Shown: one piece after another, positions 1,850 through 59,238 of the stretch | Position numbering within the stretch: the first letter of the stretch is position 1 | Layout: each line of letters starts with the position of its first letter | Source of the DNA: Candidatus Campbellbacteria bacterium | GTDB taxonomy: Bacteria; Patescibacteriota; Minisyncoccia; Phycocordibacterales; EsbW-18 | DNA length: 64,000 nucleotides | Reading direction: 5' to 3' | NCBI GenBank assembly: GCA_024653945.1 | Contig: JANLIT010000002.1 | Coordinates: forward strand, 146,508 to 210,507 | Notes under the pieces: model-generated | The model's input: the letters and a program-made list of their open reading frames with translations, nothing else | Database searches by the model: none | Told to the model about the DNA's origin: nothing | Program-made: the position numbers and the translations under genes

Positions 1850-2302
1850 AACACATACGTCATCCTTGATAACATTCGAAGCGTGCATAATGTCGGTTCT
1901 ATTTTCCGTACCTGTGATGCTGCGGGTGTTACGAAACTCTACTTGTGTGGACTTACGCCGATACCAGTGGACCGATTCGGGCGCGTGCGAAAAGATATGG
2001 CAAAAGTTGCGCTTGGTGCGGAAAAGAACGCTGCGTGGGAGTATGCATACAATACACAGGATGTAATTGAAAAACTAAAACAAGATGGAGTTTGGATTGT
2101 TGCCGTTGAGCAAAACCCACATTCAAAGCTCTGTACCGATATATCGGTACAGGGACCGATCGCGTTTGTATTTGGTGGGGAAGTGGCTGGTATTTCAAAA
2201 GAAATCCTCAAGATGTGTGATGAAATAATTGAAATTCCTATGCGCGGGAAAAAAGAATCACTCAACGTATCTGTTACTGTCGGCATTATTCTTTTTAGAT
2301 AA
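1847..2302 (+). CDS. SpoU/TrmH-family RNA 2'-O-methyltransferase
   Basis: Motifs LDNIRSVHNVGSIFRTCDAAG ... VFGGEVAGIS ... IPMRGKKESLNVSV are typical of SpoU methylases. The upstream in-frame extension of the ORF overlaps tRNA-Lys and was discarded. Confidence 0.75.
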   Translation: MNTYVILDNIRSVHNVGSIFRTCDAAGVTKLYLCGLTPIPVDRFGRVRKDMAKVALGAEKNAAWEYAYNTQDVIEKLKQDGVWIVAVEQNPHSKLCTDISVQGPIAFVFGGEVAGISKEILKMCDEIIEIPMRGKKESLNVSVTVGIILFR

Positions 2303-2312
2303 ATGACGTCCT

Positions 2313-2340
2313 CCCCGCAGTAGCCTGCGGGGTTTCCTGT
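2313..2340. terminator. Rho-independent terminator hairpin
   Basis: Inverted repeat ccccgcag tagc ctgcgggg followed by tttcctgtt. Confidence 0.6.
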
Positions 2341-2418
2341 TACATTAAAAAAGGACCGCAATGCTTCGCAGTCCCCAGAATGCGGGAGGGTGTTACCCCT
2401 CTGCACGCTCTTGTCGTC

Positions 2419-2712
2419 TTACCGAACGAAGATTTGGAGGACCATCTCTCCTTGCTTGGTCTTGAAGTGACGCTCGCTTCCTTCACCTTCTTCGGAGAAT
2501 GTCACCGAAAGAGGGATCTCGAAAGTCCCAAGGCTGGGGGGATTACTCCCCGTGTCCTCAAACTCCACCACCAAGAGCTCTCGATTCGTATCGACCGTGA
2601 GGCCCTTGATAACACCACCGGACAACTCGTTGTTCTGATTCCTCACAACTCTGCCCGTTGGGGCAGATTTTGCAACATCTTCCCATCCCTTGTCCTGAAT
2701 GAATCTGATCAT
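2419..2712 (-). CDS. Hypothetical small protein (GC-rich ORFan with strong SD)
   Basis: GAGGAGG sits 6 nt upstream of the ATG (MIRFIQDKGW...). GC content is clearly above that of neighbouring genes. No recognisable family. Confidence 0.5.
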   Translation of the reverse strand: MIRFIQDKGWEDVAKSAPTGRVVRNQNNELSGGVIKGLTVDTNRELLVVEFEDTGSNPPSLGTFEIPLSVTFSEEGEGSERHFKTKQGEMVLQIFVR

Positions 2713-2789
2713 ACATACCTCCTCAGCCAAGTGGCCGAAAGTTGACTTCTGGAAGCACTGTAGAGTATTTAGTGTCTTACGTCAAGTAT

Positions 2790-3764
2790 TTAACGATATT
2801 CAAGAATATCAACCACTTTTCCCGTGTCATCAATAAGGGCGATTGCCTCACGCCTTTCTCGCCACAGAGTCTTACTTGAACCCAAAAAGAGTCGCCACGT
2901 ATTTCCTAAAAAGTCAGAATCTGTTTTGTGTAGTTCGAGACATCCATCATATGTGGAATACGTACGTATAAAAGCTCTACAAAAACTAGGGGTGGTGCTT
3001 GCATAGGTTCCGCGGTCACACGAACCAGTGTTTTCAATGCCATCCATGCACGCGTCGTATTCTTCTTCATCGTCAAATGCGTCTGGTGTAATGCCAAATG
3101 ACACAAGGTCTTCATCTTCTAGGAGGGGACACGACTGCCACATACTTGGATTAAAGTTGTAACTACGGTTCAAATATCCTGTACATTTGTTTTCTAAAAA
3201 TCCCGTGTTTATTCCAACTGCGTATCGCGAATTTATAATCGCCCGCTCGCCTGGTGCAAGAAAGACGTTTTGTTCTTTTTTCCACGGCTGGTTACCTTCA
3301 AGAACGGCAACACCTTTTGGTATAGCAACACGAGTACCAGAAACCAGACTTTCAAGTTTCCATCCAGAAATAACAATCGGGGCAGTATTTGCACCACTGG
3401 CTTCAATGATGAGATATTCATCACGAGAATTTTGTGTGTAGGTATTACCCGCGCTCAAAGTAATCATTCCGTGGTATACAGATTGGTTTTTTTCATCAAG
3501 GGCCTCTTGTACCGCCCGTGCAATTTTTGCAATTTCATCTTCAATACGGTTTAATTCGCCCTGTTTGTATTCTGCGTCACTGACAACGCCATCATTATTG
3601 TTGTCATATGAACGGGTGTATGCCGCAGAACTTTCAATAGAATCAGTACCACCCAAAAAACTGTATGACGAAGAATTATTAAGGACGGGAACAGTTTCTT
3701 GTACGTACGAGATAAAAAAGACGGCCGCAATGATAAAAAAAAGAAATTTGACGAGGTCGTTCAT
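2790..3764 (-). CDS. Membrane-anchored secreted protein, possible lamin-tail-like domain
   Basis: N-terminal TM helix FLFFIIAAVFFISYV. Segment VISGWKLES...GTRVAIPKGVAVLEGNQ...LAPGERAIIN resembles an LTD fold. Cys-rich C-terminus. Confidence 0.5.
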   Translation of the reverse strand: MNDLVKFLFFIIAAVFFISYVQETVPVLNNSSSYSFLGGTDSIESSAAYTRSYDNNNDGVVSDAEYKQGELNRIEDEIAKIARAVQEALDEKNQSVYHGMITLSAGNTYTQNSRDEYLIIEASGANTAPIVISGWKLESLVSGTRVAIPKGVAVLEGNQPWKKEQNVFLAPGERAIINSRYAVGINTGFLENKCTGYLNRSYNFNPSMWQSCPLLEDEDLVSFGITPDAFDDEEEYDACMDGIENTGSCDRGTYASTTPSFCRAFIRTYSTYDGCLELHKTDSDFLGNTWRLFLGSSKTLWRERREAIALIDDTGKVVDILEYR

Positions 3765-3812: not shown

Positions 3813-5102
3813 TTAGTTTAGTTTTTTCAACTCTTCTCTGACTACCGTTGCGTCGTCCCAAGGTATTTTACTCCCATTCGGACCCATAATATACGGGTCG
3901 GTACCTTTGCCGGTTATAAGAACAGCAACACGCGCGTGGGGGTTTGTTGTAGCCATTTTTTGGGCCAGTACGAGTGCTTCATGGAGGGCCTCTCGTCTAT
4001 CAAGAATAATAGAAAGTTTTGATGTATCTTGTATACCCTCCGCCATTTGTTCTAGAATTTTTTGAGGGTCTTCGTCATATGGGTCTTCGTTGGTGAGAAA
4101 AATATGTTGGCAAGATGCTTCGGCAATACGCGCCATTTCAGGGCGCTTCCATGTGTCGCGTCCACCTCCAGTATTTCCAAGAACACCAACAACTCGAGAA
4201 AGAGAGAATGCCTCATAGATGCTTTTTAGTGAATCAGGTGTGTGTGCGTAGTCCACCACCACATCAAACGCTTGGCCTTCTCGTATAAATTCTGCACGCC
4301 CAGGAACGCTGGTTACACTTTCTAGCCCCTCTTTTATTTTCTGGGGTGGAATGTTTTGGCTCTGTGCAAAAGTTGCAGCCGATAGTGCGTTATACACATT
4401 AAAAAGTCCTGGAATAGCGAGATGGATACGCTCTCCACCAAATCCAAACTCATAACCCGTGCTTGTTTGGCTGTACGGTTTTGCGTCTGAAAGATGAAAA
4501 GGAAATGCACGATTGGCGCCACACTCTAAAAACGAAAGTGCCTCAGCATCGTCTGCGTTTGCAATAATCGCAGTATTTTGTTTGTGTGAGTGTGCAAGTT
4601 GTTGTGCGACAGACAATTTTGCATCGCGATAGTTCTCAAATGAGCCGTGTGATTCAAGGTGTTCGGGCGCGAGATTGGTAAAAATAAGCGCATCCATGGC
4701 AATCCATTTGTGGCGGAACTGTTTCGCACCCTCACTCGTCATTTCAATGATTGCCCAATCACATTTCTCAGTAACTGCGTTACGCAGAAACTTTTGCACA
4801 AAAAATCGCCCCGGAATCGTCATTTTGTAGAGGTTGCGTGTTTCGGTGTCGGCAACTTTGAAACGAATGGTGCCAAGAAGCGCGGTTGTGTATCCCGCGG
4901 ACTCAAGAATTGCATTTACCAACTCTGCTGTTGTTGATTTTCCTTTGGTGCCGGTGATGGCAACAACTTTGATATGGCGAGAAGGGAAGCGATAGACAAG
5001 CGTACCGAGGAGGGCGAGTTTCCAGTGGTAGATTGGTTGCAATGCCGTAAACAGCTTTGTGGGAATGAACCGTTTGATGAACCGAAGAGTTTTGTTGAGC
5101 AT
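3813..5102 (-). CDS. murE: UDP-N-acetylmuramoyl-tripeptide synthetase (Mur ligase, MurE-type)
   Basis: ITGTKGKSTT P-loop, DYAHTPDSL motif, Mur ligase middle and C-terminal domains. Confidence 0.75.
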   Translation of the reverse strand: MLNKTLRFIKRFIPTKLFTALQPIYHWKLALLGTLVYRFPSRHIKVVAITGTKGKSTTAELVNAILESAGYTTALLGTIRFKVADTETRNLYKMTIPGRFFVQKFLRNAVTEKCDWAIIEMTSEGAKQFRHKWIAMDALIFTNLAPEHLESHGSFENYRDAKLSVAQQLAHSHKQNTAIIANADDAEALSFLECGANRAFPFHLSDAKPYSQTSTGYEFGFGGERIHLAIPGLFNVYNALSAATFAQSQNIPPQKIKEGLESVTSVPGRAEFIREGQAFDVVVDYAHTPDSLKSIYEAFSLSRVVGVLGNTGGGRDTWKRPEMARIAEASCQHIFLTNEDPYDEDPQKILEQMAEGIQDTSKLSIILDRREALHEALVLAQKMATTNPHARVAVLITGKGTDPYIMGPNGSKIPWDDATVVREELKKLN

Positions 5103-5152
5103 GCTTGTTTATCAAGGTTAAACCTCGATATATCGAGGTTTAACCTTGATGA

Positions 5153-5722
5153 TTACCTGCCACCGAGAATTTTTAGGGCTTCTTTTATGCGTTCGTTTGT
5201 GCCGATTTTTGATACATCAATTTTTTTCACCGCATCACGTGCCTCTGTTTGTGAGTAACCCAATGACACAAGCACTTCCACCACATCAGCATCTTCACGA
5301 AGTTCTCCGCCCATCTCGCCGCGACTGCCGAGTCGGTCTTTGAGCGTTACCACAATGCGCTCTGCAGTTTTCTTTCCAATGCCGGATACTTTGGTGAGGT
5401 AGGTAATATTTTCTTCAGCAATAGCACGTCGAAGTGTCTCGGCACTTGCAAGCGAGAGTACGGCAAGAGCGGACTTCGGACCAATGCCCGGTACCGCTAA
5501 GAGCATTTCAAAAAATGCCAATTCGTCGCGGTCGGCAAATCCAAACAAATCCATAGATGTTTCGCGCACCGCCATATGCGTCCACAACGAAATCGTGTCA
5601 CCAATTTTTATTTTTGATGCCGTGTCGCGTGCCACATGAACACCGTAGCCAATGCCAGCAACATCAATAACGATGAGTCCTGGTTCTGTGTGAAGTGCTG
5701 TGCCTGAAATGTGGGAAATCAT
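5153..5722 (-). CDS. ruvA: Holliday junction DNA helicase RuvA
   Basis: MISHISGTAL...IDVAGIGYGVHV (OB domain), LLAVPGIGPKSALAVLS and VSGIGKKTAERIV (two HhH), C-terminal domain. Confidence 0.85.
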   Translation of the reverse strand: MISHISGTALHTEPGLIVIDVAGIGYGVHVARDTASKIKIGDTISLWTHMAVRETSMDLFGFADRDELAFFEMLLAVPGIGPKSALAVLSLASAETLRRAIAEENITYLTKVSGIGKKTAERIVVTLKDRLGSRGEMGGELREDADVVEVLVSLGYSQTEARDAVKKIDVSKIGTNERIKEALKILGGR

Positions 5723-16347: not shown

Positions 16348-16419
16348 GGTGCCTATAGTTTAGTGGTAAAACTCCGCTCTGTGGCAGCGGTGTCGAGAGT
16401 TCGATTCTCTCTAGGCACC
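16348..16419 (+). tRNA. tRNA-His (anticodon GUG) with encoded G-1
   Basis: G-1 plus GTGCCTA acceptor; anticodon loop CTGTGGC; T-arm GAGAG-TTCGATT-CTCTC; discriminator C73. Confidence 0.85.
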
Positions 16420-16459
16420 CCAATTAGAGGTAGGTTCTGGTCGAGCAAGGGTTGTGACC

Positions 16460-16888
16460 CTACTGGATAAAGTTTATAAGGTATTTTTTTATCGTTACCC
16501 GGATATTTTGTAACACTTTTTCACGTGACGTCGGACGGCTTTTTGCAATACCAACTGCAAAATTATATAAATCGTTCTGATCCATCTTTATCCATTTATT
16601 ATTGTGTGCTAGAAAAACAAGTAGTGTCATAATAGCGACTCTTTTATTGCCGTTTTGAAATGGATGATTTTTTATCATCAAATAAAACAACATCGTTGAT
16701 TTTTCAACCAACCCTCTATACATATCTTTTTGGTCAAAGCTGGTAAATGGAACATCTAAACAACTTTCAAGCGCGTTGGGAAGACGTGTCCTAAAGTCAG
16801 GTATCGGCTCATCCCATGTCATTAGCTCTTTTGCTAACGCAAAAGCAGTAAATTCCACCTCTGCCATTGTGATAGGTTTTGTTTTCAT
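16460..16888 (-). CDS. Fic/Doc-family toxin (death-on-curing-like)
   Basis: HPFQNGNKRVA matches the Doc/Fic motif H-x-F-x-(D/N)-G-N-K-R. 142 aa. Confidence 0.7.
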   Translation of the reverse strand: MKTKPITMAEVEFTAFALAKELMTWDEPIPDFRTRLPNALESCLDVPFTSFDQKDMYRGLVEKSTMLFYLMIKNHPFQNGNKRVAIMTLLVFLAHNNKWIKMDQNDLYNFAVGIAKSRPTSREKVLQNIRVTIKKYLINFIQ

Positions 16889-17139
16889 TCCTTGGCCAAT
16901 CTCCTGAATGCTCCTCCGTACTCTTTCACGGCCTTTTTCACTGCCGTTTCAATTTTTTGTTTTCTACTTGAACCAACAGCCTGACCCAACGCTTCCAAAA
17001 GATCTTCGTGGGCGATTACATAATTACGTCCTATTTTTTCGGCCCTTAGTCTTTTACTCTTTATTTTTCTAAAAACCTCCACACGACTTAAGTGCAATAT
17101 TTTTGCTACCTCTGCCGTGGAATAAAATTTTCTGTTCAT
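16885..17139 (-). CDS. HTH (excisionase/MerR-like) DNA-binding protein, probable cognate antitoxin
   Basis: STAEVAKILHLSRVEVFRKIKSKRL is a helix-turn-helix. The gene overlaps the Doc gene by 4 nt. The 30-bp perfect palindrome lies immediately upstream. Confidence 0.6.
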   Translation of the reverse strand: MNRKFYSTAEVAKILHLSRVEVFRKIKSKRLRAEKIGRNYVIAHEDLLEALGQAVGSSRKQKIETAVKKAVKEYGGAFRRLAKE

Positions 17140-17140
17140 A

Positions 17141-17170
17141 TTCGTATAGTAACATATGTTACTATACGAA
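17141..17170. promoter_or_regulatory. Perfect 30-bp palindrome, candidate autoregulatory operator of the HTH/Doc operon
   Basis: ttcgtatagtaacat|atgttactatacgaa starts 2 nt upstream of the antitoxin start codon. Confidence 0.6.
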
Positions 17171-17274
17171 ATAAGGCTTTAAAAAGGGGCTCGTGGGGGA
17201 ATGGGGTCAGACCCCTTTTCCTCATTAGTTCCAGCTCGAGATAGCCACCCCCAAATAGTGGAAGTTAGTGGTTA

Positions 17275-17294
17275 CCTGCCTGCCGGCAGGCAGG
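17275..17294. repeat. REP-like perfect 20-nt palindrome CCTGCCTGCCGGCAGGCAGG (copy 1 of 4)
   Basis: Flanked by ggaagttagtgg / gggatgttggaagttgg. The other copies are at 20019, 57524 and 59219. Confidence 0.75.
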
Positions 17295-17363
17295 GATGTT
17301 GGAAGTTGGTGATTTGTCCAAGTACTCTAATTGTAGTTTGAACTGGTATACTTTTGGTATGGT

Positions 17364-18053
17364 ATGGAAGAGCGTTCACACAAAACAAAAACAATTCTCA
17401 TTACGGGAATAGGCAAAGGAATTGGGAAGGCGCTTGCGCAAAAATTTCTCGCGGAAGGAAACCGTGTTATTGGTACAGCACTAACGGGTGCCGTTGATTT
17501 TTCTGATCCAAACCTCTCCGTGTTTCATCTAGATATACGAAGTGAAGAAAGTATAGAGAAATGCGTTGCAGACATTAAAAATACAGGGCATACGATAGAT
17601 ATTCTCATTAATAACATCGGCGTGCTTCTTGATGAAGACGAGACGGTAGTTGTTATGGACAAACTGCGAGGAACGTTAGAAGTAAATCTTATCGGCACGA
17701 TTGGTTTTACTGAAAAAGCCATTTCTCTTTTGTCTGAGGGAGCCCATCTTCTAACCATCACCTCCTCGGCTGGCTCAATCACTCAAGTAGCGACCGAGAG
17801 TCATTTTCCTGGACACTATCCTGCATACAAAATTTCAAAGGCCGCTCTCAATATGTATGTCAAAACACTTTCAGAGAGGTTGAAAGGGAAGGCGATTGTT
17901 TCTGCAGTTCATCCTGGGTGGGTAAAGACCGACATGGGTGGACAAGAGGCCGATGTAACACCGGAAGATGCCGCTGATGGAATCTATACTCTTGCCCTCT
18001 CTCAACCTGAAACAGGACACTTTTGGTTTAGAGACAAAGAATTGCCGTGGTAA
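17364..18053 (+). CDS. Short-chain dehydrogenase/reductase (SDR) family oxidoreductase
   Basis: ILITGIGKGIGKALA Rossmann motif; NNIG; YPAYKISKAA (YxxxK catalytic pair). Confidence 0.8.
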   Translation: MEERSHKTKTILITGIGKGIGKALAQKFLAEGNRVIGTALTGAVDFSDPNLSVFHLDIRSEESIEKCVADIKNTGHTIDILINNIGVLLDEDETVVVMDKLRGTLEVNLIGTIGFTEKAISLLSEGAHLLTITSSAGSITQVATESHFPGHYPAYKISKAALNMYVKTLSERLKGKAIVSAVHPGWVKTDMGGQEADVTPEDAADGIYTLALSQPETGHFWFRDKELPW

Positions 18054-18544
18054 GTACTTCTGATATGGAAATAAGAAAACCCGTTTTAAATAAAGGTATT
18101 CTGAAAAAGAAAACTTTTACGAATATTTCCGTGACGGAACTTGAGGGTGTTTTTATTGTTGGTGGTTCTTTAGAAAATCAGAATATTGAAGATATAAAAA
18201 TTGATACCAGCGCCCTAGAAGACATCTCCTTTCAATCCTCAAAAGTAAAAGATATACAATGTATTGATTCAACCCTCACAGGTGCTAACTTTGCCGGAGC
18301 TTCCTTTGAACAAACTTATTTTGAAAGAGTTTTAATAACAAAAAGTCGTTTCCAAGGGACACAGTTTATGGGGTGTGTTGTCCGTGATGTGATGATTGAG
18401 AAATCAAAGTGTGCAGATGTATCATTTAGGTTTGCAAAAATAAAAGATGTGGTTTTTCTTGGTTGTGATTTAGAAAATGCCGACTTCATGGGGGCTAGTA
18501 TGGAGAATGTTGTGTTTAAGGATTGCAGTCTTAGGAATTCATAA
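18047..18544 (+). CDS. Pentapeptide-repeat protein (interrupted by in-frame TAA at 18542-18544)
   Basis: Tandem A(D/N)LxG-type repeats. After the TAA the same frame continues for 49 more repeat-like codons (FSQTKLKNISFKDADIEG...) to a TAG at 18692. Confidence 0.65.
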   Translation: MVSTSDMEIRKPVLNKGILKKKTFTNISVTELEGVFIVGGSLENQNIEDIKIDTSALEDISFQSSKVKDIQCIDSTLTGANFAGASFEQTYFERVLITKSRFQGTQFMGCVVRDVMIEKSKCADVSFRFAKIKDVVFLGCDLENADFMGASMENVVFKDCSLRNS

Positions 18545-18811
18545 TTTTCCCAAACAAAATTAAAAAACATTAGTTTTAAAGACGCAGATATTGAAGGAAT
18601 TGTGATAGACAAAAACTCACTCAACAGTATTACTGTCAATACGGGGCAGGCCCTATATCTTGCCACACTATTGGGGTTTAAAATTGAAAATTAGGTCTAA
18701 AAAATTTATTTTTTTAAAACATTGCTCTTACTGGTAATTAGGAATACTATCCTCACCAGAAGAAATTGTTCCTCGTCAGCTTCACCCCACCACCAACCTA
18801 GGAGACGTGAC

Positions 18812-19498
18812 ATGAGCGTGAGTGAGAAGGTTATCGTAGCCACAGACGAGCTTCCTCTCGGTGCGTGCTTGGATTTGGCGCGCGCCATCGGGCAACAGGT
18901 CTATGCGTTCAAGGTTCACAACCTGTACGATATGGACCCGTCCATCGTCACCCAGCTTCACAAGGCAGGTGCGCGACGCGTCTGGGTTGACGCGAAACTT
19001 CACGACATCCCGAACACGGTCAGGCTTCGTGCTCAGGCATTCGCCGACGCAGGTGCAGACATCATCACGGTGCATGCATCGGGTGGTATCGAAATGATGA
19101 TGGCCGCACTTCAGAGCGGTATTCCCGAGATCTTTGCGATTACGGTTCTCACCTCTCTCTCGGAAGAGGAGACGCATCTATTACATGGGCAGCCGTCCAA
19201 GGCGGCAGTGCTCTACCTCGCGCGCATGGCCAAGCTTGCCGGCATGCAAGGTGTTGTCTGTTCGCCGAAGGAAGTCGGCATTCTCTCCAAACGTCCCGAG
19301 CTCAAAGGTCTCACTCTCGTGACGCCGGGAGTTCGTTCCGTCGGTAAGGATGCCGGCGACCAACAGCGTGTTGATACGCCCCTCGCGGCACTCAACGCCG
19401 GTGCGTCCTACCTCGTTGTGGGTCGCCAACTCACAAAGGCGCCCGATCCTGTCGCCGCTCTCGCCCAGCTCGAAGAAGAGATCGCCGAGGTAATCTGA
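18812..19498 (+). CDS. pyrF: Orotidine 5'-phosphate decarboxylase
   Basis: VIVATDE, DAKLHDIPNTV (the D-x-K-x-x-D-I-P-x-T signature), VHASGG. AGGAGACG SD. GC content is clearly higher than the window average. Confidence 0.8.
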   Translation: MSVSEKVIVATDELPLGACLDLARAIGQQVYAFKVHNLYDMDPSIVTQLHKAGARRVWVDAKLHDIPNTVRLRAQAFADAGADIITVHASGGIEMMMAALQSGIPEIFAITVLTSLSEEETHLLHGQPSKAAVLYLARMAKLAGMQGVVCSPKEVGILSKRPELKGLTLVTPGVRSVGKDAGDQQRVDTPLAALNAGASYLVVGRQLTKAPDPVAALAQLEEEIAEVI

Positions 19499-20018: not shown

Positions 20019-20038
20019 CCTGCCTGCCGGCAGGCGGG
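20019..20038. repeat. REP-like palindrome, degenerate copy (cctgcctgccggcaggcggg)
   Basis: One mismatch relative to the 20-nt consensus. Confidence 0.6.
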
Positions 20039-57523: not shown

Positions 57524-57543
57524 CCTGCCTGCCGGCAGGCAGG
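57524..57543. repeat. REP-like 20-nt palindrome (copy 3), followed by a T-run
   Basis: cctgcctgccggcaggcagg then gatttttt. Confidence 0.75.
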
Positions 57544-59218: not shown

Positions 59219-59238
59219 CCTGCCTGCCGGCAGGCAGG
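59219..59238. repeat. REP-like 20-nt palindrome (copy 4, inverted flank orientation relative to copy 1)
   Basis: ccaacatcc-cctgcctgccggcaggcagg-taacttccaac. Confidence 0.75.

Follow-up and report, generated by a model that had tools for sequence, protein, structure and literature searches.

A probable type II toxin-antitoxin operon pairing a Doc-family toxin with an HTH_17 protein in a Candidatus Campbellbacteria genome

Organization of the locus

The analysed stretch of DNA (64,000 nt, hereafter the window) comes from a MAG of Candidatus Campbellbacteria, an uncultured ultra-small CPR/Patescibacteria bacterium. A preliminary description had reported an ORF for a Doc-type protein with the motif HPFQNGNKR, a 4-nt overlap on the minus strand between this ORF and that of an HTH protein, an HTH_17/excisionase-like antitoxin, and a perfect 30-bp palindrome near the antitoxin start. 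All of these are present (Table 1): the two ORFs share the four nucleotides ATGA, the HTH protein scores above the cut-offs of both HTH_17 and the excisionase family TIGR01764, and the palindrome ends one base from the antitoxin ATG. The toxin stop codon is separated by 37 nt from a convergent tRNA-His gene, which is context and lies outside the TA module. Beyond the palindrome are a REP-like repeat, an SDR gene, a pentapeptide ORF broken by a stop codon and pyrF, the last in a region of 55-59% GC against ~40-45% in its surroundings.

Table 1. Features at the locus, numbered along the forward strand of the window.
Feature	Position	Strand	Basis or remark
tRNA-His(GTG)	16349..16422	+	ARAGORN; Rfam tRNA 65.9 bits
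Doc-family toxin gene, 142 aa	16460..16888	-	ORF; Pfam/TIGR profiles
HTH_17 antitoxin gene, 84 aa	16885..17139	-	ORF; Pfam/TIGR profiles; upstream of toxin gene
Antitoxin C-terminal tail, residues 53-84	16888..16983	-	Family consensus K.EIE.AVKKAVKEYGE.FK.LGKE
Predicted recognition helix, residues 19-27 (R-V-E-V-F-R-K-I-K)	17059..17085	-	AF2 model
Perfect 30-bp palindrome (arms TTCGTATAGTAACAT and ATGTTACTATACGAA), putative operator	17141..17170	.	Computed from sequence
Putative extended -10, TGtTACTAT	17146..17154	-	Hexamer 17146-17151; in right palindrome arm
Family-wide operator core GTAACATATGTTAC	17149..17162	.	Invariant part TAACATATGTTA at 17150-17161
Putative weak -35-like TTATTT	17169..17174	-	17 nt upstream of -10; alignment of upstream regions
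REP-like palindrome CCTGCCTGCCGGCAGGCAGG	17275		Three more copies: 20019, 57524, 59219
SDR	17364-18053		ORF/domain search
Pentapeptide ORF	18047-18544		Ends at in-frame TAA 18542-18544; frame runs on to 18694
OMP decarboxylase (pyrF)	18812-19498		ORF/domain search

The toxin and the antitoxin

By profile, motif and predicted fold, the 142-aa protein is a member of the Doc subfamily. It scores 37.5 bits against PF02661 (Fic; cut-off 24) and 60.3 bits against TIGR01550 (DOC_P1; cut-off 38.65). Doc proteins carry the motif HxFx(D/N)(A/G)NKR, with a Lys where the Fic motif HxFx(D/E)GNGR has its second Gly, and P1 Doc, a kinase with the Fic fold, phosphorylates EF-Tu. In alignment, the catalytic motif of the window toxin, H75-P-F-Q-N-G-N-K-R83, corresponds to HIFNDANKR in P1 Doc and HCFYNANKR in 9vzc. 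The preliminary description had made its reading depend on this motif surviving careful alignment, which it does, being invariant in 22 aligned homologues. An AF2 model of moderate quality (pLDDT 74) adopts an all-helical Doc-like fold, its top PDB matches being the P1 Doc structures 3k33, 3dd7 and 3kh2 (probability 1.0, TM 0.54-0.65, 17-19% identity in the structural alignment). Homologues are 140-144 aa long, supporting the full-length start of the 142-aa ORF. The public record of the window toxin uses a start that gives a shorter protein than this ORF. The only PADLOC match of the toxin is to the C-terminal domain of PDC-S23 candidates, which are larger, single-gene systems, and a PDC-S23 identity was rejected on account of this different architecture.

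In the model of the upstream protein, a winged HTH of the MerR/excisionase type occupies the N-terminus and leads into a conserved C-terminal helix. Its ORF has a single possible start codon, and its sole Pfam match is HTH_17 (37.1 bits, cut-off 27), accompanied by a match to TIGR01764 (excise; 34.2 bits, cut-off 28.8). The AF2 model (pLDDT 82) has the layout beta-H-H-wing-long helix and is structurally most similar to RacA, BldC, Pukovnik Xis, RdfS and MerR proteins; a sequence search of the PDB returned nothing meaningful. With HTH_17 as its only Pfam match and a winged helix as its model, the antitoxin has neither the fold nor the sequence of Phd/YefM, and BLASTP against P1 Phd produced no alignment.

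The C-terminal tail is strongly conserved in the family: across 59 homologues Y74 and L81 are invariant and E73, G75 and E84 are at least 90% conserved. A search of 1.84 billion representatives with the 40-aa tail alone, aimed at other DNA-binding domains that bear it, was uninformative, with four weak matches. One related locus (L021) carries a 61-aa antitoxin paralogue in which the tail is missing; no toxin gene follows this paralogue, and it is flanked by the DNA boxes described below. We infer that residues 53-84 form the toxin-binding, neutralising segment, an assignment that draws on analogy and on the tail-less paralogue since the antitoxin has no detectable similarity to P1 Phd.

Conservation of the pair across the Patescibacteria

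The comparison set comprised 80 related loci, of which 78 are testable, L030 and L061 being cut by a contig end. An antitoxin homologue was located directly upstream of the toxin in 76/80 loci by tblastn and in two more (L043 and L055) by inspection. The preliminary description had named a lack of HTH-Doc linkage in other genomes as grounds for giving up its reading; the linkage is kept in 78/78 testable loci. The offset between antitoxin stop and toxin start is -4 in 45 loci and -1 in 13 (58/77), with gaps of no more than 11 nt in the others, and separate gene calls likewise give HTH_17 followed by Fic. The HTH_17-Doc pairing is found in at least 550 species-level genomes, is common within the Patescibacteria and seems to rank among the common TA families in this group; we found no published description of it in the searchable literature.

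The window therefore presents two small, co-oriented and coupled genes with the antitoxin first, and the two families are linked wherever the comparison set allows linkage to be assessed. We consider it likely that they constitute a type II Doc-family TA operon with an HTH_17 antitoxin outside the Phd/YefM type, and toxicity, neutralisation and repression are predicted for the pair. It is improbable that the pair is instead a dedicated regulator and an enzyme of the Fic/Doc type serving a physiological, non-addictive role, such as translational slowdown or dormancy in episymbionts, in which the HTH protein would act mainly as a transcription factor. The architecture is that of a typical type II TA system (a small upstream DNA binder with a conserved tail, an ATGA junction and a putative operator on its own promoter), the neighbours are mostly not syntenic, decayed copies exist (the truncated toxin in L017), and a kinase that arrests growth is known to carry the Doc-type NKR motif, all of which speak against such a role despite the wide distribution of the family. 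In favour of a physiological role, two lineages have the pair at a common position among housekeeping genes (RF ... GatCA-LigA), and a scan of viral contigs recovered only distant relatives of at most 47% identity and partial coverage. The toxin is 58-80% identical to homologues from Kaiserbacteria, Nomurabacteria, Zambryskibacteria and others (22-sequence alignment), and because this conservation is unusually high for a selfish module it leaves room for a housekeeping-like role.

A putative operator overlapping the promoter

The arms of the palindrome are 15 nt long, 100% complementary and without a spacer, and a single base (17140) separates them from the antitoxin ATG (17139-17137). In 30 block-shuffles of the window the longest perfect arm was 8-10 nt, and 13 nt once, and the 24-mer core of the palindrome occurs once in the window against an expectation of 0. 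An identical 30-mer is present in L002 and L005, and other close relatives have long perfect palindromes in which changes in one arm are mirrored in the other (TTTGTATAG/CTATACAAA, TTCGTATGG/CCATACGAA and TTCGTATCTTAAC/GTTAAGATACGAA). Boxes of the TAACATATGTTA type, reading GTAAC or GTTAAC, overlie the promoter in nearly all related loci. In 48/76 loci the paired form, GT(T)AAC-N4-GTT(A)AC, is found no more than 90 nt upstream of the antitoxin, compared with four occurrences in the other 546 kb, two of which flank the additional HTH_17 gene of L021. Single boxes are 22-fold enriched, at 22 per kb upstream of the antitoxin versus 1.0 per kb elsewhere.

The operator variant covaries with residue 21 of the antitoxin, within the predicted recognition helix (77 loci). 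Glu21, the residue of the window antitoxin, goes with nGTAAC boxes in 17/17 loci, Ala21 with nTTAAC in all 32 loci with a detectable pair, Lys20-Thr21 with GGTAAC in 5/6 and Ile20-Thr21 with CTTAAC..GTTAAG in 3/4, the independent events being fewer than these locus counts because much of the covariation follows clades. Unusual helices accompany different palindromes (TTGTCATATGACAA in L026 and TTATCATATGATAA in L027) or, in L053, GTTTAC boxes. Glu21 is thus a candidate specificity residue.

The putative extended -10 in the right arm of the palindrome stands, as read from the sequence, 6 nt upstream of the antitoxin ATG, and close relatives have TGn-TA(C/A)(T/C/G)AT 6-9 nt before the ATG. In 46/75 of the related loci, the distance from the end of the closest -10-like hexamer to the ATG is 6-9 nt, with a mode of 6, and more distant loci have TTGACA-17-TATAAT promoters ending 7-8 nt before it, the boxes flanking or filling the spacing between the two hexamers. 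At the position of the -35, relatives have TTGATT or TTTATT. A generic sigma-70 consensus scanner called no promoter at the window antitoxin because the -35 is weak. A -10 in a palindrome arm, so close to the start codon, suggests a leaderless, autorepressed operon. A missing Shine-Dalgarno sequence was considered as additional support for a leaderless mRNA and rejected, since SD-like motifs precede only 4/35 long ORFs in the window, which equals the background level.

The palindrome could in principle work as an RNA or DNA structure (a cruciform, a terminator, or a hairpin in the 5' UTR that masks the start codon) in place of a protein operator, given that a perfect 15+15 palindrome would make a stable hairpin if transcribed and that mirrored arm changes are also expected of a stem. 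This is very improbable. The left arm would be untranscribed because the best -10 candidate lies in the right arm; in distant loci separate GTTAAC hexamers are split by the -35 or by 12-13 nt spacers and form no single hairpin; and the imperfect palindromes of L012, L019 and L022 break as A.A and T.C, not as G.U-type pairs. The box variants, moreover, covary with protein residues, and no Rfam family matches at the palindrome. The adjacent GC-rich hairpin region (17171-17262, minus strand) folds no better than shuffles (z = 0.86). The palindrome is the putative antitoxin operator for autoregulation. The preliminary description had proposed this role, and comparison lends it strong support: the core is conserved upstream of the antitoxin, promoter hexamers are overlapped, and the variant follows the recognition helix.

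The tRNA neighbourhood

A tRNA gene lies no more than 125 nt downstream of the toxin in 10/80 related loci, against ~0.8 expected, an excess of about ten-fold. The preliminary description had placed the pair in a small island beside tRNA-His, together with the REP-like palindrome, the SDR gene, the broken pentapeptide gene and the GC-rich pyrF. Each of these components is present; the island itself is not demonstrated. We found no integrase or recombinase domains in ORFs between 13.6 and 23.7 kb and no att-like repeat (at least 13 nt) matching the 3' end of tRNA-His within the window, and the best relatives of pyrF are all from Patescibacteria. The locus does not present as a bounded foreign segment with a direct repeat and mobility genes of the kind that marks a tRNA-adjacent genomic island. 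When 11 neighbouring proteins were searched for synteny against the 80 loci, only CsoR-CopA (L007) and LexA-like proteins (two loci) were matched. The neighbourhood of the module is variable and is not a bounded island.

It is scarcely credible that the HTH_17 protein is the excisionase of an element at tRNA-His, with Doc as mere cargo and the palindrome as a recombination or att-related site, for although it has an HTH_17-type domain, matches TIGR01764, resembles Pukovnik Xis and RdfS, adjoins a tRNA 3' end in a family enriched beside tRNAs and, in strain variant L097, has a serine recombinase ~2 kb away, no integrase or recombinase domain was found between 13.6 and 23.7 kb and no att repeat in the window, the HTH gene shares an operon with Doc in every testable locus and bears a conserved toxin-specific tail, and the boxes occupy the -35/-10 of the promoter of this gene rather than the ends of an element.

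Proposed mechanism and significance

Under the type II TA reading, the antitoxin would bind the 30-bp palindrome as a symmetric oligomer, either by itself or together with the toxin. Because the putative extended -10 falls within the right arm, binding would occlude RNA polymerase, and a leaderless antitoxin-toxin mRNA would be autorepressed. Translation of the toxin would be coupled via the ATGA junction, and the C-terminal helix of the antitoxin may cover the active site of Doc in the way that Phd does with its C-terminal helices in Phd-Doc. Upon loss of the antitoxin, free Doc would be expected to phosphorylate EF-Tu and so arrest translation. Candidate roles are the stabilisation of variable regions near tRNA genes, phage defence or dormancy.

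We also entertain, as a rather doubtful proposition, that the locus represents an undescribed Patescibacteria-wide family that may combine a readable protein-DNA recognition code at residue 21, a leaderless operon with its -10 in the operator, and preferential placement within ~125 nt of the 3' ends of different tRNA genes. If true, residue 21 would set GTAAC, GTTAAC or CTTAAC operators and allow several paralogous modules to coexist without cross-talk, and the tRNA placement would point to a module that either marks or stabilises hot-spots of tRNA-targeted insertion in these reduced genomes or is carried along with a minimal integrative element. Experimental genetics is almost absent in the Patescibacteria. 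The core TAACATATGTTA, the candidate residue 21, the candidate tail 53-84 and a promoter geometry predictive of a leaderless mRNA provide testable hypotheses, and the module lends itself to use as a well-defined regulatory part and to marking the variable regions of CPR genomes.

Comparison with known systems

The closest known counterpart is P1 Phd-Doc, a type II TA system with which the window pair shares a TIGR01550 toxin of NKR-type motif and similar predicted fold, an antitoxin gene placed upstream, predicted autoregulation from a palindromic operator, and an antitoxin made of an N-terminal DNA-binding domain and a C-terminal helical tail. It differs in having an HTH_17 winged helix where Phd has the Phd/YefM fold, with no detectable sequence similarity to Phd, and in its operator core, its probably leaderless promoter and its patescibacterial hosts. 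The N-terminal 50 residues of the antitoxin are structurally closest to BldC, Xis and RacA, small binders of short-repeat arrays that act as developmental regulators, excisionases or chromosome anchors; unlike the window antitoxin, these proteins are not toxin-linked and lack the ...KEYGE.FK.LGKE tail. TA modules are known to shuffle their antitoxin DNA-binding domains, and the pairing of Doc with an antitoxin of the MerR/excisionase type is therefore no conceptual surprise; the HTH_17-Doc module is an ordinary kind of system and no new class of biology.

Two other known systems come close. In the MerR-like-PIN pairs, a truncated MerR HTH without the MerR dimerisation and effector region is the predicted antitoxin (Makarova et al., 2009; PMC2701414). 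These pairs resemble the present one in using a small protein of the MerR superfamily as predicted antitoxin, but their toxin is a PIN nuclease and their additional toxin-interacting segment is N-terminal, whereas here the toxin is Doc and the segment C-terminal. In PanA-Doc, the antitoxin has a Panacea N-terminal domain, and neutralisation by its 'Phd-C' tail was shown by experiment (Ernits et al., 2023; PMC10440598). The window antitoxin carries an HTH_17 domain in the place of Panacea and its tail is assigned a neutralising role by inference, yet the two systems would share the same principle, in which Doc is neutralised by a short helical element at the C-terminus, portable between N-terminal domains of different kinds.

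Doc-family toxin and its obligate partner

The toxin ORF overlaps the antitoxin ORF by an ATGA and scores above threshold against both Pfam Fic (37.5 bits, threshold 24) and the death-on-curing subfamily model TIGR01550 (60.3 bits, curated threshold 38.65). Its H75-P-F-Q-N-G-N-K-R83 stretch is invariant in an alignment of 22 homologues (58-80% identity), in keeping with the Doc catalytic motif claimed in the preliminary description, and lines up with its counterparts in P1 Doc and in the solved "death-on-curing family protein" 9vzc. HPFQNGNKR is the Doc version of the Fic motif, with Lys in place of the Gly of AMPylating Fic proteins. The top PDB matches to an AlphaFold model of the toxin (pLDDT 74) are P1 Doc chains (probability 1.0, TM 0.54-0.65), and by sequence, motif and predicted fold the protein belongs to the Doc subfamily. 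Toxin, antitoxin and pyrF product each match proteins of a Candidatus Campbellbacteria MAG (238-kb contig) with 100% identity. Public annotation names it "type II toxin-antitoxin system death-on-curing family toxin", calls its partner only "helix-turn-helix domain-containing protein", and places the toxin start at Met8 (135 aa), 7 codons later than in the 142-aa ORF (window 16868-16888). Since homologues of 140-144 aa span the entire ORF, we prefer the start that overlaps the antitoxin.

A GTDB scan with one genome per species found toxin relatives on at least 550 stretches, the best 80 of which, nearly all from Patescibacteria MAGs, formed the comparison set. In 76 of these 80, tblastn places the end of an antitoxin homologue at the toxin start or shortly ahead of it, and inspection showed one upstream in two more (L043 and L055); the other two (L030 and L061) are cut by a contig end and do not enter the count. 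The antitoxin therefore lies directly upstream of the toxin in 78/78 testable loci among the best 80 of at least 550, with an antitoxin stop to toxin start overlap of -4 in 45 loci, -1 in 13, and gaps of at most 11 nt in the remainder. Independent gene calls on metagenome contigs again gave an HTH_17 gene followed by Fic. With linkage obligate among testable loci and the motif invariant, the proposed HTH-Doc pairing withstands comparison on both counts. One relative with 73% identity (L017, 1096-1452) is truncated after about residue 113 to a 118-aa ORF, with antitoxin and palindrome intact and a tRNA-His 43 nt downstream of the truncated toxin, as in the window; it looks like a decaying copy.

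Features of the toxin-antitoxin region and of other sites in the window
Feature	Coordinates	Strand	Basis	Remarks
40-bp perfect palindrome ATCAAGGTTAAACCTCGATATATCGAGGTTTAACCTTGAT	5111-5150
tRNA-His(GTG)	16349-16422	+		convergent with toxin, 37 nt from its stop
Toxin ORF	16460-16888	-	read from sequence	142 aa, with HPFQNGNKR
Antitoxin ORF	16885-17139	-	read from sequence	84 aa
Palindrome TTCGTATAGTAACAT|ATGTTACTATACGAA	17141-17170			putative operator
Predicted extended -10 (hexamer)	17146-17151	-	read from sequence	hexamer ends 6 nt before ATG
-35	17169-17174	-	upstream alignment	weak, TTATTT, 17 nt upstream of -10
Terminator-like hairpin GGGGTCAGACCCC	17203-17215	+		followed by TTTTCC
SDR gene	17364-18053
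Pentapeptide-repeat ORF	18047-18694			in-frame TAA at 18542-18544
pyrF	18812-19498			55-59% GC, background ~40-45%
Palindrome CCTGCCTGCCGGCAGGCAGG	17275-17294, 20019-20038, 57524-57543, 59219-59238			four copies

A putative antitoxin of MerR/excisionase type

The antitoxin matches HTH_17 (37.1 bits, threshold 27) and also the "excisionase family" domain model TIGR01764. Its structural model (pLDDT 82) comprises a strand (residues 5-7), two helices (8-15 and 19-27), a two-stranded wing (34-43) and a long helix (44-83), with the N-terminal 50 residues resembling RacA, BldC, mycobacteriophage Xis, RdfS and MerR-family DNA-binding domains. A Phd/YefM identity was tested and rejected; similarity to Phd was not detectable by Pfam or by BLASTP against a P1 Phd sequence. 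Conservation is strong over the last 30 residues at the C-terminus (consensus K.EIE.AVKKAVKEYGE.FK.LGKE), Y74 and L81 being invariant and E73, G75 and E84 at least 90% conserved.

A conserved putative operator on the antitoxin promoter

The palindrome next to the antitoxin consists of two perfectly complementary 15-nt arms that abut without a spacer, as the preliminary description had it, and lies a single base away from the antitoxin ATG. In block-shuffled copies of the window the longest perfect arm was 8-10 nt, once 13, and the 24-nt core of the palindrome occurs a single time in the window. Within the 75 nt preceding the antitoxin ATG, almost all loci carry GTAACatatGTTAC or GTTAACatatGTTAAC, with the common core TAACATATGTTA. 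Over the 90 nt that precede the antitoxin, single boxes (GTAAC or GTTAAC) reach a density of 22 per kb, versus 1.0 per kb in the remaining 546 kb of the loci, and a paired box is found upstream of the antitoxin in 48/76 loci, with just 4 occurrences elsewhere in the loci. In the sub-clade of the window the core is embedded in long perfect palindromes (24-34 bp) whose outer positions vary as mirrored changes (TTTGTATAG/CTATACAAA, TTCGTATGG/CCATACGAA, TTCGTATCTTAAC/GTTAAGATACGAA), indicating that dyad symmetry is under selection across the full 30 bp.

Two of these other 4 paired boxes flank a gene in L021, one of the compared loci, for a 61-aa HTH_17 paralogue (4892-5077, helix SRISVF) that has no C-terminal tail and no toxin after it. 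These identical GGTTAACATATGTTAACC boxes enclose the gene (4855-5120), the second preceding a DUF3850/ASCH gene (5151-5414), so that a stand-alone regulator shares the operator type in a genome that also has the toxin-antitoxin pair.

The palindrome overlaps predicted promoter elements. On the minus strand its right arm reads TGtTACTAT, followed by ACGAAT and the ATG, and relatives have TTGATT or TTTATT at the -35 position. In 46/75 loci the closest -10-like hexamer stops 6-9 nt short of the ATG (mode 6), and canonical TTGACA-17-TATAAT promoters, in the loci that have them, likewise stop 7-8 nt short of it. Distant loci have arrays such as GTTAAC-c-TTGACA-N5-GTTAACatatGTTAAC and GTTAACatatGTTAAC-ca-TTGACT-N5-GTTAAC-N6-TATAAT, in which the boxes are arranged around recognisable promoters and hence lie on or beside the -35 and -10. 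A generic promoter scanner did not call the antitoxin promoter of the window. A transcription start ~7 nt beyond the -10 would coincide with the A of the ATG, so this geometry suggests a leaderless antitoxin mRNA. Shine-Dalgarno-like motifs precede 4/35 window ORFs of at least 200 aa, which is the background frequency (13%), so their absence before the antitoxin lends the leaderless reading no support; translation initiation in this organism appears to rely little on Shine-Dalgarno motifs. The terminator-like hairpin is located in the stretch that separates the operator from the divergent SDR gene, and folding of the wider region around it was no better than that of shuffles. Two loci (L001 and L002) have a GC hairpin and then a T-run just upstream of the -35.

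The box sequence covaries with the predicted recognition helix (residues 19-27). Where residue 21 is Glu (SR[IV]E[VI]F), 17/17 loci have nGTAAC; where it is Ala, all 32 loci with a detectable pair have nTTAAC. Lys20-Thr21 accompanies GGTAAC (5/6 loci) and Ile20-Thr21 accompanies CTTAAC..GTTAAG (3/4). Unusual helices come with different sites: TTGTCATATGACAA for SRQAVL (L026), TTATCATATGATAA for SRIAIL (L027) and GTTTAC boxes for TRQAVH (L053). Because many of these groups correspond to clades, independent events are fewer than the locus counts; this structure notwithstanding, the pattern fits the prediction of direct readout by the helix. A core that is conserved upstream of the antitoxin, sits on its promoter and covaries with the helix favours the earlier proposal of an autoregulatory operator, as judged by comparative sequence.

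A variable region beside tRNA genes

In 10/80 loci (the best 80 of at least 550) a tRNA gene follows the toxin at a distance of at most 125 nt, against ~0.8 expected from the tRNA density of the same loci. These tRNAs differ (Asp, Met, Glu, Gln, His, Gly, Arg) and are mostly convergent with the toxin; taken together, this suggests that the module tends toward tRNA 3' ends. In two related lineages the pair occupies the same site between RF and GatCA-LigA and the surrounding genes differ.

The SDR gene, the broken pentapeptide-repeat gene, the GC-rich pyrF and the REP-like palindrome, which the preliminary description assigned to a small island next to tRNA-His, are all present, and the tRNA adjacency stands, as a trait of the family. 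However, no ORF between 13.6 and 23.7 kb of the window has an integrase or recombinase domain, no repeat of the tRNA-His 3' end of 13 nt or longer was found, synteny of the neighbouring genes with other loci was not found, and the closest pyrF relatives are all Patescibacteria (identity up to 74%). Together with the variable surroundings, this argues for a variable tRNA-side region rather than a demonstrated bounded island. If pyrF was transferred, it probably came from another CPR lineage and not from outside the phylum. The pentapeptide-repeat frame runs on for 49 codons past its TAA, to 18694; the interruption may reflect a pseudogene, a true truncation of the gene or an error in sequencing. 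Of the four copies of the GC-rich palindrome CCTGCCTGCCGGCAGGCAGG (0 expected by chance), one has 1 mismatch; because the copies share only ~24 bp and have unrelated flanks, this is a REP-like short dispersed palindrome.

One strain variant of the Zambryskibacteria context (L097) encodes, at 1895-3520, a serine recombinase with Resolvase/Recombinase domains together with an HTH_36 protein, ~2-4 kb upstream of the toxin-antitoxin pair; both genes are missing from five otherwise identical contigs. The window also contains a perfect palindrome longer than that of the operator, ATCAAGGTTAAACCTCGATATATCGAGGTTTAACCTTGAT. It separates two minus-strand ORFs, one of 189 aa (stop at 5153) and one of 429 aa (start at 5102), whose translations by eye look RuvA-like and Mur ligase-like, respectively.

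Proposed mechanism and comparison with known systems

We propose that the antitoxin, as a symmetric oligomer, would bind the palindrome and block RNA polymerase at the -10, with toxin translation coupled via the ATGA. By analogy with Phd, whose C-terminal helices neutralise Doc, as does the "Phd-C" element fused to PanA (PMC10440598), the antitoxin may neutralise the toxin with its own conserved C-terminal helix; once free, Doc would phosphorylate EF-Tu and translation would stop. The system would work like Phd-Doc, but with an antitoxin that is not a Phd/YefM protein.

The comparative data support a module of a Doc toxin and a MerR/excisionase-type antitoxin that is widespread in Patescibacteria. 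Full-text literature searches on Doc/death-on-curing toxins, also in connection with Patescibacteria/CPR, found no description of a pairing with an HTH_17, excisionase or MerR-like antitoxin. The principle will not surprise a specialist; the comparative footprint of the operator is unusually clear, and the operator core, specificity residue and leaderless geometry are concrete and testable. The Fic/Doc partners listed by Makarova et al. (2009, PMC2701414) are AbrB, Phd and YhfG, and the same survey pairs truncated-MerR antitoxins with PIN toxins. Among earlier systems, those truncated-MerR antitoxins (PMC2701414) and the modular Phd-C tail (PMC10440598) come closest to this type of antitoxin.
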